A DNA stretch of 64,000 nt from NCBI GenBank assembly GCA_913050095.1, contig CAJXAV010000001.1, forward strand, positions 564 to 64,563, given 5' to 3'. Numbering within the stretch: the stretch's first letter is position 1; each line of letters starts with the position of its first letter. The translations under genes and the position numbers were made by a program. Positions 15,501 to 47,523 of the stretch are shown in pieces. The notes under the pieces were generated by a model. It did not search any database, was not told the origin of the DNA, and was given only the letters and a program-made list of their open reading frames with translations. The stretch comes from an uncultured Gammaproteobacteria bacterium. Its GTDB lineage: Bacteria > Pseudomonadota > Gammaproteobacteria > Poriferisulfidales > GCA-002705445.

Positions 15501-17651
15501 ATGAGCCTAGATTATAATCTTAATAACCTTAATGAAGCTCAAAGAGATGCAGTATGCAATTTATCTAAAAATTGTTTAGTGATAGCTGGGGCGGGCAGTG
15601 GTAAAACCAGAGTTTTAATTCAAAGAATATTATGGCTAATAGAAGATAACGATTATTCTCCATTCTCTATATTAGCTGTGACTTTTACAAATAAAGCAGC
15701 AAGAGAAATAAAAACAAGACTATCAGAAAACATTGATAATAATATTGATAGCATGTGGGTAGGAACATTTCATGGTATATGTTACAGAATATTAAGGGCA
15801 AATTATGAAAAAGCTAATCTAGTCAAAAATTTTCAGATTATCGATAGTGATGATCAGGTAAGAATCATCAAAAGAATTATGAAAGATAACGAGATTGATA
15901 ATTCTCAAGTTATTCCAAAACAAGTAGCTTGGTATATTAATAAAAAAAAGGATCAAAGTATTAGGAGTAATAAAACTAAAAACGATGACTTTATAAATAT
16001 TCAATATAATAAAATTTATAAAATATACGAAGAATATTGTAATAATAGTGGTCTTGTAGATTTTGGTGAAATTATTTTAAGAACTTTGGAATTACTAAAA
16101 AACAATGATGAGATAAGAGCGTATTACCATAGATTATTTAAATCTATATTAATCGACGAATTTCAAGATACAAATACAATTCAATATGATCTTATAAAAA
16201 TCTTAACAAGCACGGAAACCTCCATTTTTGCTGTTGGCGACGACGATCAATCTATTTATGGATGGAGAGGAGCTAAGGTTGAAAATATAAAAAAATTGCA
16301 GAAAGATTTTAAGAATACAAATGTATTTAGGCTTGAGCAGAATTATAGATCATCAGGAAATATATTAAATGCAGCTAATAGCATAATAATTAACAATAAT
16401 TCAAGAATGGGAAAAAATTTATGGACAGAGGATAAAAGTGGAGACTTAATAAAAATTTTCTCAGCTAGTGACGAAATTGATGAAGCAGCTTTTGTGGTTG
16501 AAACTATTGAGCAGCATATTTCTGAAAATTACAAGAGAAGTGAAGTAGCAATATTATATCGGTCAAATGCTCAATCTAGAATATTTGAGGAAAAATTCGT
16601 TTCCAAAGGTATCCCATATAAAATTTATGGCGGCTTTAGGTTCTTTGAAAGGGCCGAGATAAAAGATGTGATTGCTTATATGAGACTTGCTACGAGCAAC
16701 GATGACGACAACTCTTTTGAAAGAATTGTAAACACACCACCAAGAGGTATAGGAGAAAAAACAAAAAATTTATTAAGAGAATTTTCAAAAGAAAAAGAAA
16801 TATCTTTATTTAAATCTATACCGTTAGCATTAGAAGAATCAATTCTGAGTAAAAAAGCTGGAGAGTCATTATCAAAATTCTGCAATCTTATAAATATAAT
16901 ATCATCAATTTTAGAAAAAGATGATTTGCCGCATCAAATAAATGAAATAATCAAAGTTTCAAATATAAAGTCAATTTATGAAAAAAATAAAACTGAACAG
17001 TCAAGATCAAAATTAGAAAATTTAGATGAGTTAATTTCTGCTGCTCAGGAGTTTATTAATACTGATTTAGATCAAAATGAGACTATTATTGACGCCTTCT
17101 TAACGCATACATCATTAGAATCAGGAGAAGGACAAGGAAATGAATGGGATGAATGTATACAACTCATGACTCTGCATTCTTCAAAGGGTTTAGAATTTCC
17201 AATTGTTTTTTTGGTTGGGCTGGAAGAAAATTTATTTCCAAGTAGAATGTCAATTGAGGAAGATAATCTAGAAGAAGAAAGAAGACTCTGTTATGTTGGC
17301 ATTACTAGAGCAAGAAAAAAGCTGTATATTTCTCACGCTCAAATGAGAAGACAATATGGAACAGAAAATTATTGTATGCCATCAAGATTTTTAAATGAAA
17401 TTCCCGAAGAAGTTATTGAGGAAATTGGTTATAACCCAAAAAAAATATTTAAAAAAGAAAATTCTATGGTTTATAAAAATATTCGTAATGAAAATAGTAT
17501 AATGGGTAAAAGAGTTTTGCATAAAAAATTTGGAGAAGGGGTGGTGATTTCAACGGAAGGTTCTGATTCTAATACTAGAGTTCAAGTATCTTTTGATAAT
17601 TCAGGTTGCAAATGGCTAATTTTGGCTATAGCAAATTTGGAGATTATTTAA
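15501..17651 (+). CDS. uvrD: DNA helicase II UvrD
   Basis: 716 aa SF1 helicase (GAGSGKTRVL); the UvrD-type C-terminal Tudor-like tail (GKRVLHKKFGEGVVIS...) and position after xerC favour UvrD over Rep. Confidence 0.85.
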   Translation: MSLDYNLNNLNEAQRDAVCNLSKNCLVIAGAGSGKTRVLIQRILWLIEDNDYSPFSILAVTFTNKAAREIKTRLSENIDNNIDSMWVGTFHGICYRILRANYEKANLVKNFQIIDSDDQVRIIKRIMKDNEIDNSQVIPKQVAWYINKKKDQSIRSNKTKNDDFINIQYNKIYKIYEEYCNNSGLVDFGEIILRTLELLKNNDEIRAYYHRLFKSILIDEFQDTNTIQYDLIKILTSTETSIFAVGDDDQSIYGWRGAKVENIKKLQKDFKNTNVFRLEQNYRSSGNILNAANSIIINNNSRMGKNLWTEDKSGDLIKIFSASDEIDEAAFVVETIEQHISENYKRSEVAILYRSNAQSRIFEEKFVSKGIPYKIYGGFRFFERAEIKDVIAYMRLATSNDDDNSFERIVNTPPRGIGEKTKNLLREFSKEKEISLFKSIPLALEESILSKKAGESLSKFCNLINIISSILEKDDLPHQINEIIKVSNIKSIYEKNKTEQSRSKLENLDELISAAQEFINTDLDQNETIIDAFLTHTSLESGEGQGNEWDECIQLMTLHSSKGLEFPIVFLVGLEENLFPSRMSIEEDNLEEERRLCYVGITRARKKLYISHAQMRRQYGTENYCMPSRFLNEIPEEVIEEIGYNPKKIFKKENSMVYKNIRNENSIMGKRVLHKKFGEGVVISTEGSDSNTRVQVSFDNSGCKWLILAIANLEII

Positions 17652-27789: not shown

Positions 27790-28053
27790 TTAATTTTTTT
27801 CCAAATTCGCGATCTTTGCCTCTAATTCATTAATTTTTTCTTGGCATTTTTTTAGAAGAGCGACTTGTATATCATATTCTTCTCTTGAAACTAGATCGAG
27901 TTTTTGTAAAACGCCTTCTGCTCCAGATTTTAGCGTTTTTTGCATCTCTTCTTTTGAGCTTTTAAGAGATTCAGGCATTATATCCTTAATTTTACTTGCA
28001 AACTCATCAACATTTTTGGGATCAAATTTAAACATTTTTTTAATATAAGTCAT
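27790..28053 (-). CDS. ubiK: ubiquinone biosynthesis accessory factor UbiK (YqiC/BMFP family)
   Basis: 87 aa coiled-coil protein with the conserved LDLVSREEYDIQ core shared with E. coli UbiK (LDLVSREEFDVQ). Confidence 0.7.
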   Translation of the reverse strand: MTYIKKMFKFDPKNVDEFASKIKDIMPESLKSSKEEMQKTLKSGAEGVLQKLDLVSREEYDIQVALLKKCQEKINELEAKIANLEKN

Positions 28054-28197
28054 TTAATAAAGTAATTCTACTAAATTATATAAATATGTAAATAAAACAA
28101 AATATAAATATCTTTTCATATTTAGTAATTTAGCCTTTTTATTTCAAAGTAAGAATAAGTCCTTCAAAATAAATAATTTTATTGACTTGATAGATTG

Positions 28198-28214
28198 TGG
28201 CATGAAGCTTGCAT
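28198..28214 (+). promoter_or_regulatory. sigma-54 (RpoN) -24/-12 promoter upstream of the TorF-family porin gene
   Basis: TGGCAT-gaagc-TTGCAT matches the TGGCAC-N5-TTGCA consensus with correct GG/GC spacing, 45 nt upstream of the ATG at 28260. Confidence 0.55.
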
Positions 28215-28259
28215 TATTTTCTATGAGATATCATAACTTAAAAAAAAGGAGATTAGAAA

Positions 28260-28988
28260 ATGATTAAAATTTTAAAAAGTTTATTAGCTGGTTTTGTTTT
28301 GCTTACTGCATCCATTGCCTCTCAAGCTGAAACTGAAATATCTTATAGCGGTAATATAGGGTTTATGTCGGATTACATGTACAGAGGAATTCATCAATCC
28401 AGTAGCTCTGCAATGGGTGGTTTGGATATAGAATACGGTGGATTTTATATTGGTACATGGTTTGCTGATTTACAAGAAGATGGCTGGGTTTCGGGTTCAC
28501 ACAGAGGGTTCGAATATGATGTTTATGCAGGGTTTGGATTTGATTTAACTGACTCAATATCTGCATCAATTGGATACACTATTTATAGATATACTGACAA
28601 AGGTGCCTCTGCATTTGATGATGATTACGATGAAGTCAATTTAGGACTTGGTTTTGCAGCCTCGGAAAACCTTTCTTTTGCTATAGATTATGCTATTGGG
28701 GAAAATACAGCGACAGATCAATCAGAGACAGATTACGATGTTTTAACTATATCGGCAGATTATATGGGTATTTATCTTTTAGTCGGCCAATGGGGCGTAT
28801 CAGAAGATGATGCTTCTAAAAGTGAAGTTGACGCTTCCTGGTGGGAAATTGGGTACAGTAGATCTGTAGGTGATTTTGATTTATCAGCTGGATTTGTTTT
28901 ATCAGAGCAAGAATTAGCACAAGCATCAGATACTGGTGAAGATGGAGACTTTTCAAGATTTGTTTTTTCAATGAGCACATCTTTTTAA
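28260..28988 (+). CDS. outer-membrane beta-barrel protein, TorF/Gcw_chp (TIGR02001) putative porin family
   Basis: 242 aa; signal peptide (…ASQA/ET), alternating-hydrophobic beta-strand pattern, a C-terminal aromatic residue and conserved SDYMYRGI.../GFYIGTWFA blocks. Confidence 0.65.
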   Translation: MIKILKSLLAGFVLLTASIASQAETEISYSGNIGFMSDYMYRGIHQSSSSAMGGLDIEYGGFYIGTWFADLQEDGWVSGSHRGFEYDVYAGFGFDLTDSISASIGYTIYRYTDKGASAFDDDYDEVNLGLGFAASENLSFAIDYAIGENTATDQSETDYDVLTISADYMGIYLLVGQWGVSEDDASKSEVDASWWEIGYSRSVGDFDLSAGFVLSEQELAQASDTGEDGDFSRFVFSMSTSF

Positions 28989-29074
28989 TAACTATAAAGG
29001 AAAAAAAATTCAAAAAATTCTTAAGACTCCTTACTTAAGACTCCTCGAGAAGCCACAAAGGGCTGATCATCTAA

Positions 29075-29101
29075 GGGAAGGGCAACCTTCCCTTTTTTTT
29101 T
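29075..29101 (+). terminator. rho-independent terminator after the porin gene
   Basis: GGGAAGG-GCAA-CCTTCCC hairpin (7-bp stem, GNRA-like loop) followed by T9. Confidence 0.75.
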
Positions 29102-29126
29102 GCTAAAGGTATACTGATATATGAAC

Positions 29127-29141
29127 GCACTAATATTGTGC
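29127..29141 (+). promoter_or_regulatory. putative NtrC enhancer-binding site
   Basis: GCAC-N7-GTGC dyad (cGCACtaatattGTGCa) resembling the NtrC consensus TGCACCA-N3-TGGTGCA, about 100 bp upstream of the glnK sigma-54 promoter. Confidence 0.4.
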
Positions 29142-29234
29142 AAATAATTTAAACCCTTTTAAAAAAACGCCAAATTTTTTTTTATGATAAGGAGAACTAG
29201 TATTTTTGTTGATATTCATAATTAAAATATATTT

Positions 29235-29250
29235 TGGCACGGTAAATGCA
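29235..29250 (+). promoter_or_regulatory. sigma-54 (RpoN) -24/-12 promoter of glnK-amtB
   Basis: TGGCACG-gtaa-ATGCA is a near-perfect match to TGGCACG-N4-TTGCW, 38 nt upstream of the glnK ATG. Confidence 0.65.
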
Positions 29251-29267
29251 TATTTATATATGCTTAA

Positions 29268-29627
<360 letters not shown>

Positions 29628-29648: not shown

Positions 29649-30887
29649 ATGGAAGGTCAAGTAATTGAATTAGCATATGCACTAGACACATTTTACTTTC
29701 TAGTAATGGGTGCATTTGTAATGTGGATGGCAGCAGGTTTTTCAATGTTAGAAGCTGGTCTTGTACGTTCGAAAAGTACTGTTGAAATATTAACAAAAAA
29801 TATAGCGTTATATTCTATAGCTTCAATCATGTATATGGTTGTTGGTTACAATTTAATGTACCCAGCTGATGGCAATGGAATAGTCCCAGCTGTTAGCTTT
29901 TTCCTTGGCGGTGATAATGAGACTGCTGATGTTTTATCAAGTGGTGGTGAAATTTATTATTCAGCATTATCAGATTTTTTCTTTCAAGTAGTTTTCGTAG
30001 CCACAGCTATGTCTATAGTGTCTGGTGCTGTTGCTGAAAGAATGAAACTGTCTTCATTTTTGCTATTTTGCATTGTAATGACAGGATTAATATATCCAAT
30101 ACAAGGTTATTGGAAATGGGGTGGTGGTTTTTTAGATGAAGCTGGATTTTTAGATTTTGCTGGGTCTGGAGTTGTGCATTTATGTGGAGCAGCTGCAGCA
30201 CTAGCAGGGGTTTTACTTTTAGGCGCAAGGAAAGGTAAATACGAAAATGGTAAAATAAATGCTATACCTGGAGCAAATATGCCTTTAGCTACCCTTGGTA
30301 CATTTATATTATGGCTGGGTTGGTTTGGTTTTAATGGCGGATCTGAATTGATGGTATCAAATGTTACGGAAGCAAATGCGGTTGCTATGATATTTGTAAA
30401 TACAAATGCTGCTGCTGCTGGCGGTGTAATTGGTGCATTATTATTTTCTAAAATTTTATTTGGAAAATTTGATTTATCAATGTCACTTAATGGTGCAATT
30501 GGCGGTTTAGTTTCTATAACTGCTGAACCATTAACACCAACACCAGAGCTCGCTGCAATAATTGGTGCAATTGGCGGGATTCTTGTTGTTATTTCTATTA
30601 TTGTACTAGATAAATCTAGAATAGATGATCCTGTGGGAGCTATTTCTGCTCATGGAACTTGCGGCATATGGGGTATAACAGCTGTTTGCCTGTCTAACGC
30701 AGATGCCACGTTAGGTGTTCAACTATATGGCGCCTTAATAATTTTTGCATGGACATTTACAATGGCTCTAATATTTTGGGCAATTCTTAAAATGGTAATT
30801 GGTATTCGAGTTTCTGAAGAAGCTGAAGAAATGGGTGTCGATGTTGCCGAATGTGGAATTGAAGCTTACCCAGAATTTAAAAAATAA
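29649..30887 (+). CDS. amtB: ammonium transporter AmtB
   Basis: 412 aa Amt/MEP family with conserved blocks (DFAGSGVVH, FGFNGGS). Confidence 0.9.
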   Translation: MEGQVIELAYALDTFYFLVMGAFVMWMAAGFSMLEAGLVRSKSTVEILTKNIALYSIASIMYMVVGYNLMYPADGNGIVPAVSFFLGGDNETADVLSSGGEIYYSALSDFFFQVVFVATAMSIVSGAVAERMKLSSFLLFCIVMTGLIYPIQGYWKWGGGFLDEAGFLDFAGSGVVHLCGAAAALAGVLLLGARKGKYENGKINAIPGANMPLATLGTFILWLGWFGFNGGSELMVSNVTEANAVAMIFVNTNAAAAGGVIGALLFSKILFGKFDLSMSLNGAIGGLVSITAEPLTPTPELAAIIGAIGGILVVISIIVLDKSRIDDPVGAISAHGTCGIWGITAVCLSNADATLGVQLYGALIIFAWTFTMALIFWAILKMVIGIRVSEEAEEMGVDVAECGIEAYPEFKK

Positions 30888-30907
30888 AATTTTTAAAATC
30901 GAAATAG

Positions 30908-30939
30908 CGTGCATAATTTTTATTGTGCACGTTTTTTTT
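30908..30939 (+). terminator. rho-independent terminator of glnK-amtB
   Basis: CGTGCATAAT-tttt-ATTGTGCACG hairpin (10 bp including one G-U pair) followed by T8. The ORF-track ORF 30799..30987 lies across it and is spurious. Confidence 0.75.
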
Positions 30940-30949
30940 ATTATATTAT

Positions 30950-47225: not shown

Positions 47226-47294
47226 TTTTTATAAAAAAATTATGTTTTTTTGTTTTTTTTTATAAATTTTTAAATTTTAGATGATTTTGAAAGG

Positions 47295-47466
47295 AAAAAA
47301 CCGATGTACCGTTATTATTAATTTTCCTTGAACCGTTGAGTTCAGGTGGGTCTAAGTTTAAAACTTTAGGCTTCCTAAATAATAGGTTTGCACACCAGAT
47401 TTTAGTAACTTAATCCCTTTTAAAAAATTAGGAACAAAGATATAACAACAATATCGTGTACATCAG
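47295..47466 (-). ncRNA. ssrS: 6S RNA (ssrS)
   Basis: On the minus strand immediately downstream of zapA, the conserved ssrS position. The sequence contains GGAAGCCUAAAG and CACCUGAACUCAACGGUUCAAGG, matching E. coli 6S GAGAAGCCUUAAAAC and CACCUUGAACCAAGGGUUCAAGG. The 5' GAUGUAC...GUUGUUAU and 3' AUAAUAAC.GUACAUC ends pair as a closing stem, followed by a U-run. Confidence 0.65.
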
Positions 47467-47523
47467 TTCTTATTTGAATATATCAAATTAGTTCGTTATA
47501 GACCAGTGTATAAAATATGAAAA

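Follow-up and report, generated by a model that had tools for sequence, protein, structure and literature searches.

In Escherichia coli and other Proteobacteria, the gene for the P-II signal protein GlnK is followed by that for the ammonium channel AmtB, and transcription of the pair is controlled by the nitrogen regulator NtrC together with the alternative sigma factor sigma-54. A reconstruction of NtrC regulons in 19 proteobacterial taxa recovers a core of glnA, amtB, glnBK and ntrBC and does not mention a porin (PMC5343134). In the betaproteobacterium Herbaspirillum seropedicae, the operon nlmA-glnK-amtB (formerly orf1-glnK-amtB) is NtrC-dependent and is induced 21-fold by nitrogen limitation, a condition under which the NlmA protein has been detected in membrane extracts (PMC3023670). 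Other porins have also been connected to nitrogen metabolism. In Methylomonas sp. DH-1, a unit formed by a porin gene (RS14350) and glnA was found experimentally to be activated by NtrC, with glnB-amt/glnK located divergently (PMC12799797), and in SAR11 the porin OmpU is more abundant under nitrogen limitation and was suggested to speed the diffusion of ammonium (PMC3870248), so the idea of a porin serving ammonium uptake is considered plausible in the field. Here we describe a locus in which a putative outer-membrane porin gene of the TorF/Gcw_chp family is located directly upstream of glnK-amtB. The locus lies in a 64,000-nucleotide stretch of contig CAJXAV010000001.1, from an uncultured gammaproteobacterium (assembly GCA_913050095.1), which is referred to throughout as the window. 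The literature that we searched contains no description of a linkage between this porin family and glnK-amtB.

The genes are arranged in the order porin-glnK-amtB on the plus strand, between the divergent ubiK on the minus strand and the convergent nadA. The order of glnK (29289–29627, +; PF00543 117.2 bits, NF007946 180.4 bits) and amtB (29649–30887, +), which starts 21 nt past glnK, is the same as in the NtrC/sigma-54-controlled operons of E. coli and other Proteobacteria. As in those operons, glnK is preceded by a sigma-54-type -24/-12 promoter, TGGCACG-GTAA-ATGCA (29235–29250, +), located 38 nt before its start codon at 29289, and by an NtrC-type dyad, CGCAC-TAATATT-GTGCA (29126–29142), approximately 100 bp further upstream. 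The dyad, a presumed enhancer or upstream activating sequence, matches TGCAC-N7-GTGCA at 9 of 10 positions, and its centre lies 102 bp upstream of the -24 GG of the glnK promoter. Unlike the E. coli type, the window AmtB belongs to the “marine subtype” of ammonium transporters (TIGR03644, 649.8 bits with a cut-off of 514), only one dyad is recognizable, and the pair is preceded by a porin gene (28260–28988, +; 242 residues) with a sigma-54-type promoter of its own. This second element, TGGCAT-GAAGC-TTGCAT (28198–28214, +), is located 45 nt before the porin start codon at 28260. An intrinsic terminator, in which a GGGAAGG...CCTTCCC stem is followed by nine T residues (29073–29103, +; hairpin 29073–29094), stands between the porin gene and the glnK promoter. 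A prior sequence-only reading had proposed both promoters, a GCAC-N7-GTGC dyad approximately 100 bp upstream of the glnK promoter, the intrinsic terminator and a porin of the TIGR02001/Gcw_chp type, and all of these were confirmed at the positions given here.

The H. seropedicae operon is the closest described arrangement, as in both loci glnK-amtB directly follows, on the same strand, a gene whose product is secreted or membrane-bound. Unlike the single operon of that betaproteobacterium, the window and its close relatives have two transcription units. The nlmA operon may provide an experimental precedent, the likeness being one of gene order and regulation, with the sequence of NlmA outside the comparison. 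No betaproteobacterial homologue surfaced in our protein and genome searches with the porin. The Azoarcus gene ugk (“upstream of glnK”) may be a similar case. The Methylomonas porin, an experimentally supported member of an NtrC regulon, resembles the window porin in its linkage to nitrogen-assimilation genes, but the linked gene is glnA, and its porin family is not stated.

The two promoter elements are the strongest sigma-54 matches within the window. With a weight matrix applied to both strands (approximately 128,000 positions), the porin site ranked first (20.2 bits) and the glnK site second (19.7 bits); the matrix frequencies were approximated from the published consensus, and the bit values are accordingly meaningful only relative to one another. 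In 30 Markov shuffles of the window, the best score averaged 15.9 bits and reached at most 19.9, and the second-best score did not exceed 17.0. A simpler search for TGGCACN5TTGCW with at most one mismatch returned five matches in the window versus 1.17 expected, a number reached by none of 100 shuffles. The porin and glnK sites each carry one mismatch to the 11 specified bases, have their GG and GC dinucleotides 10 nt apart, are oriented toward their genes and are intergenic; the remaining three matches fall within open reading frames. The matrix scan had been proposed as a check by the sequence-only reading, and its two sites are furthermore retained in 12 of 13 and 13 of 13 related lineages, respectively, as described below.

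Close relatives of the porin (57–100% identity) are numerous in marine metagenomes and metagenome-assembled genomes, on contigs that reach 1.06–1.11 Mb with approximately 30% G+C, for example JBJKYB010000002.1 (1.06 Mb) and JAYQIN010000002.1 (1.11 Mb). The G+C content of the window is approximately 29%, and its host is a streamlined marine gammaproteobacterium of roughly 30% G+C. Intergenic alignments from 13 lineages of this clade were used for footprinting. Mean column identity is 45% in the alignment of the ubiK-porin intergenic region and 45–67% in the intergenic DNA flanking the conserved elements. Against this background, TGGCA(C/T)-N5-TTGCAT and a Shine-Dalgarno sequence before the porin gene are kept in 12 of the 13 lineages, and the glnK promoter TTGGCAC...ATGCAT is invariant in all 13. 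The GG and GC dinucleotides of the sigma-54 elements are invariant at fixed spacing even in lineages with protein identity as low as 60%. Within the spacer between porin and glnK, the dyad cores GCAC and TGC(A) and the adjoining ATAATTTAAAC block are invariant or nearly so. The porin terminator retains its stem with a loop that varies in length and sequence, as expected for a terminator under selection for structure. The one lineage without the porin element (locus L013) has an 11-bp gap that deletes the -24 element in a Pilon-polished nanopore assembly, so that the promoter may truly have been lost or the gap may be an artefact of assembly. Three other loci (L001, L002 and L008) contain two tandem sigma-54-like elements, TTGGCATAAACCTTGCA and ATGGCATAAACATTGCA, approximately 45 and 92 nt before the porin start, apparently through promoter duplication. 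The glnK leader (29250–29288) contains a conserved near-palindrome, GCATAT(A/T)nATATATGC, which overlaps the -12 element and could form a hairpin in the 5' untranslated region.

Gene order is similarly conserved among the close relatives. At all 19 close-clade loci the gene following the porin is glnK, the divergent ubiK precedes the porin in 17 of 19, and the second sigma-54 promoter, before glnK, is present in 16 of 19. To compare more distant genomes, we carried out a scan of one genome per species, seeded with the 13-sequence alignment, which returned 80 loci; glnK, amtB, ubiK and nadA were placed within them by tblastn and the same sigma-54 matrix was applied. The distant set consists of 67 porin homologues from 67 species, at 33–42% identity. 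In 29 of these the porin is directly upstream of glnK, with amtB next in 26 and a divergent ubiK upstream in 22. These loci include Halioglobus, HTCC2143, Simiduia, Spongiibacteraceae, Cellvibrionales, Thioalkalivibrio, Ectothiorhodospiraceae and Thiohalophilus. In a further eight homologues (the OM182/K189A group), the porin is located 1.1–2.7 kb upstream of glnK-amtB-amtB, beyond ubiK. The synteny that the sequence-only reading had put forward for checking is thus borne out, with glnK directly following the porin in 29 of the 67 distant loci and lying within 3 kb in eight more. The order ubiK-porin-glnK-amtB persists down to 33% porin identity, and the cultured Oceanicoccus sagamiensis (CP019343, porin at approximately 1,829,204–1,829,848) carries ubiK divergent from porin-glnK-amtB, with an 18.2-bit sigma-54 site and a CGCAC-N7-GTGCA dyad. 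We considered whether this synteny is merely the inherited collinearity of a larger region and rejected this explanation because the outer flanks differ between lineages, with nadA, argS and polA common only to the close clade. Approximately 4,000 clusters (at 90% identity) match a profile of the glnK-linked homologues with E below 1e-10.

Some variation in gene content was also seen. Loci L026, L032, L035, L047, L057, L060 and L069, of the OM182/K189A group, have two tandem amtB copies after glnK, 64–67% identical to the window AmtB. Their porin lies beyond ubiK (and comM) and is preceded by a sigma-54 site of its own, of the TTGGCCC type. Three distant loci (L020–L022) have porin-glnK without amtB. 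Plasmid and chromid records with glnK-amtB (Aquabacterium, Acidithiobacillus and Acinetobacter) have no porin upstream.

The sigma-54 site accompanies the porin across this distance. Of the 67 distant loci, 55 have a site of at least 14 bits in the 300 nt before the porin, and in 47 of 67 it is the best sigma-54 match of the whole 12-kb locus, a placement expected by chance in approximately 1% of loci. The consensus of these sites is YTGGC(A/C)C(G/A)-N4-(T)TGC(T/A), 39–119 nt before the start codon. As a control, a TorF-family gene linked to kdpFABC on a Sphingomonas plasmid lacks such a site (-0.2 bits). The 29 distant loci with the porin next to glnK lack a second sigma-54 site in the spacer separating the two genes, which can be as short as 14–20 bp; both features point to a single porin-glnK-amtB operon. 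Since these distant relatives use one promoter for all three genes, the split arrangement of the window clade is derived. The proposal that the terminator separates two co-regulated transcripts holds for the window clade, as a derived state relative to its distant relatives.

NtrC-type dyads are likewise enriched ahead of the porin gene. In the 73 loci whose porin sigma-54 site scores 13 bits or more, the 260 nt preceding that site were examined: dyads matching at 9 or more of 10 positions occur in 29 loci versus 0.021 expected per locus, and those matching at 8 or more occur in 55 loci versus 0.124 expected per locus. They are typically 65–190 nt upstream of the sigma-54 site, and some loci have two. 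Dyads are also found at porins that do not adjoin glnK, including those of Colwellia and of loci L040, L053, L055 and L085. Sigma-54 sites and NtrC-type dyads at homologues unlinked to glnK provide evidence for nitrogen control that is independent of the gene order. These sequence motifs place the porin subfamily in the NtrC/sigma-54 regulon, with or without linkage to glnK. Within the window, the dyad at 29126–29142 (CGCACTAATATTGTGCA) is the sole match to TGCAC-N7-GTGCA at 9 or more of 10 positions.

The porin itself is a full-length member of the TorF/Gcw_chp family. Residues 1–242 align to profile positions 1–244 of TIGR02001 (89.3 bits, cut-off 47.15), and PF09694 (62.2 bits, cut-off 24) is its sole Pfam match. 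The window porin belongs to a distinct and tight marine clade: among 2314 clusters with E below 0.001, only one cluster at 50% identity scores above 300 bits and the next scores 181. Other members of the family are found in other contexts. The sequence begins with a signal peptide, containing a hydrophobic helix at residues 2–20 and ending in ...ASQA|ETE, and its C-terminus, ...STSF, has phenylalanine as the final residue. An AlphaFold2 model built with 39 sequences is a closed beta-barrel of 12–14 strands (mean pLDDT 86.9, pTM 0.79). The nearest solved folds identified by Foldseek are the monomeric porins OmpG, VhGalP and KdgM (E of 3e-6 to 1e-4, 11–16% identity), and the target-normalized TM-score reaches 0.75–0.77 for KdgM. 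The protein is therefore predicted by the model to be a small monomeric outer-membrane beta-barrel, similar in predicted fold and size to OmpG, KdgM, NanC and VhGalP. The gene for KdgM is located beside, and co-regulated with, a matching uptake system, as would be the case for the window porin. The resemblance to KdgM/OmpG-type porins is one of fold and probable mode of action only, and no sequence-family match accompanies it. Channels of the KdgM type conduct acidic sugars through a lumen lined with basic residues, whereas the window porin is strongly acidic: the mature protein has 40 aspartate and glutamate versus 7 lysine and arginine residues, for a net charge of approximately -33, and its homologues are comparably acidic. 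Family-invariant residues such as E85, D87, Y89, Y109, Y111, E125 and N127 alternate with hydrophobic positions along the predicted strands and should consequently face the barrel lumen. An acidic and aromatic lining, if the model is correct, would suit a small cation, which is suggestive only.

Taken together, we consider the best explanation to be a nitrogen regulation (Ntr) cluster, comprising a sigma-54-dependent gene for an acidic barrel channel, a terminator, an NtrC enhancer, a second sigma-54 promoter and glnK-amtB, that would serve ammonium scavenging across two membranes, and we hold this explanation with moderate confidence. When fixed nitrogen is scarce, phosphorylated NtrC would bind the dyad at 29126–29142 and switch on transcription by sigma-54 RNA polymerase from the glnK promoter, at a distance of 100 bp. 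It is plausible, by analogy, that the same dyad activates the porin promoter by looping over approximately 0.9 kb, as the dyad lies 935 bp downstream of the porin -24 element. NtrC sites in enteric bacteria are position-independent enhancers that act over kilobase distances, so one dyad could serve both promoters. The products would be a cation-selective outer-membrane channel, the inner-membrane channel AmtB, and GlnK as AmtB plug and regulator, together forming a two-membrane route for ammonium scavenging. Three points of this scheme are inferred: activation of the porin promoter by NtrC in the window clade, passage of NH4+ through the protein, and a response of its expression to nitrogen. 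The parts of this interpretation are not equally firm. Its regulatory and synteny components are strongly supported at the sequence level, and the porin is very probably under sigma-54/Ntr control. The assignment of a substrate is a reasonable hypothesis, in which ammonium as the main substrate receives slightly less than even weight from us. We propose still more tentatively that marine Gammaproteobacteria could widely use this TorF/Gcw_chp subfamily as an outer-membrane channel dedicated to ammonium or small cations and induced by NtrC/sigma-54, which would act as the first step, ahead of AmtB-GlnK, of a high-affinity uptake route across two membranes.

Several observations weigh against this interpretation. 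The 64-kb window encodes no rpoN, ntrB/C or GAFTGA protein. No dyad matching at 7 or more of 10 positions is found in 27900–28190, upstream of the window porin promoter, and none of the close relatives has a dyad of 9 or more within 260 nt upstream of that promoter. Thirty of the 67 distant homologues are unlinked to glnK. A sub-lineage with porins 63% identical to that of the window (loci L005, L006 and L017) lacks amtB, the glnK sigma-54 promoter and the NtrC dyad and retains the porin, its sigma-54 promoter (20.7–20.9 bits), the terminator and glnK. Secreted marine proteins are commonly very acidic, and the charge is no proof of cation selectivity. Lastly, the literature that we searched contains no transport or expression data for any member of the family. 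Full-text searches on TIGR02001, Gcw_chp, PF09694 and “TorF family” returned nothing relevant, and no function is described there for any member.

The best-surviving alternative, which is unlikely and still deserves serious weight, is that the porin is nitrogen-regulated with a substrate other than ammonium, such as urea, methylamines or trimethylamine N-oxide (TMAO), polyamines or amino acids, or that it is a general small-cation channel that makes the outer membrane more permeable during starvation. The family takes its name from TorF of the Shewanella TMAO-reductase locus, and another member precedes kdpFABC. Of the 67 homologues with sigma-54 and NtrC sites, 30 do not adjoin amtB, and the L005 lineage has lost amtB while keeping the porin and its promoter, so the porin is not strictly dependent on an adjacent AmtB. 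Against these points, glnK-amtB is by far the commonest and most conserved neighbour of the porin, often within one closely spaced operon, and no urea, amine or amino-acid uptake genes were found beside the homologues whose neighbours were inspected. Two plasmid-borne relatives provide further context for the family. On the Sphingomonas parapaucimobilis plasmid NZ_CP155753.1 (L089), the TorF-family gene is directly upstream of the K+ uptake genes kdpFABC, and on the Marinobacter salarius plasmid NZ_CP021334.1 (L088), one is flanked by a CusA/CzcA metal-efflux gene on one side and a two-component system on the other. The K+ ion is similar in size to NH4+. Gene neighbourhoods of these kinds hint that the TorF family may serve small cations.

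An improbable alternative is that the porin promoter of the window clade depends on sigma-54 through a different enhancer-binding protein and signal, so that the two units would be neighbours without co-regulation. The lack of a dyad upstream of the porin promoter in every lineage of the clade and the terminator that separates the porin from glnK-amtB both favour such an arrangement, as does a palindrome, AAGCATGGATGCTT, found upstream of the promoter in several relatives. However, canonical NtrC dyads precede the porin promoter by 65–190 nt in the distant homologues, neither the window nor its closest relatives contain the palindrome, and a streamlined genome of approximately 1.1 Mb is unlikely to keep many enhancer-binding proteins. 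The palindrome occurs as GAAGTTT-AAGCATGGATGCTT-AAGCTTC, approximately 100–150 nt upstream of the porin promoter, in loci L007, L009, L013, L015, L016 and L019, and may be a regulator site or a hairpin.

It is more doubtful still that the protein is no solute channel at all and instead a structural or accessory Ntr protein of the outer membrane or facing the periplasm, as was first assumed for NlmA (“probably periplasmic”). No family member is known to conduct a solute, and NlmA is described only as membrane-associated (PMC3023670). The signal peptide, the C-terminal phenylalanine, the confident barrel model of 12–14 strands with OmpG, KdgM and VhGalP as its nearest folds, and the predicted placement of conserved polar and charged residues inside the lumen all argue for a channel. 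Finally, it is scarcely credible that the -24/-12 elements are chance matches within an A+T-rich intergenic sequence and that sigma-70 promoters serve the genes instead: sigma-70-like hexamers are abundant in the window (15 versus 15.4 expected), a count that is uninformative in A+T-rich DNA, but the sites rank first and second of approximately 128,000 positions, keep their GG and GC at fixed spacing in lineages with as little as 60% protein identity and have counterparts in 55 distant species.

The 3' untranslated region of the porin gene contains a further conserved element. Located between the stop codon and the terminator (29016–29052, +), it contains a tandem direct repeat of CTTAAGACTCCT (29020–29031 and 29034–29045), is unique within the window and carries two anti-Shine-Dalgarno-like CUCCU motifs. 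The element is near-identical base for base in relatives of the clade. In metagenomes, 20 of 22 exact matches are at the porin-glnK locus, with the other two elsewhere (L096 and L108). The match in L108 (2767–2850) is judged coincidental and belongs to an unrelated 16-bp tandem repeat, ATCTTAAGACTCCTGT, of approximately five copies, which includes the same 12-mer on a high-G+C contig. The predicted fold of the element is stable (z = -4.0), no compensatory changes or covariation that would support a hairpin were seen in 13 sequences, and an RNA structure is thus unproven. No Rfam family matched the element at the gathering threshold, and its sub-threshold matches were far below family gathering scores. 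The element could be a small RNA derived from the 3' untranslated region or a protein-binding site.

Other features were annotated around the cluster and elsewhere in the window. Upstream, the divergent neighbour ubiK (27790–28053, -) encodes a protein of the BMFP family (NF047835 72.6 bits, PF04380 78.5 bits) and in many lineages adjoins either the porin gene or glnK, and amtB is followed by an intrinsic terminator with a 12-pair stem and a T run (30906–30941, +). A 6S RNA gene is located at 47294–47472 (-; 88.5 bits). A match to RF03531, the Clostridioides “sRNA within helicase gene” (17244–17343, +; 67.6 bits), lies inside a 716-residue helicase open reading frame and probably reflects conserved coding sequence and not a small RNA.

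Ammonium is the preferred nitrogen source of marine heterotrophs, to which it is available at nanomolar levels. To our knowledge, models of ammonium uptake consider only the inner-membrane Amt channel, and general porins are assumed for the outer membrane. The locus described here is of a known kind, as Ntr regulon clusters are familiar and the porin family is already annotated. Less appreciated is how widely, and with what conservation, an uncharacterised outer-membrane channel accompanies glnK-amtB. Cultured carriers of the arrangement, such as Oceanicoccus sagamiensis and strain HTCC2143, make the hypothesis directly testable. Should the acidic porin prove to act with AmtB at the outer membrane, the account of how bacteria acquire ammonium would gain a step that it now lacks, in which passage across the outer membrane is regulated and selective and not left to general porins. 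The many “putative porins” of this large family would then also have a function, and metatranscriptomics would have a new marker for nitrogen limitation.

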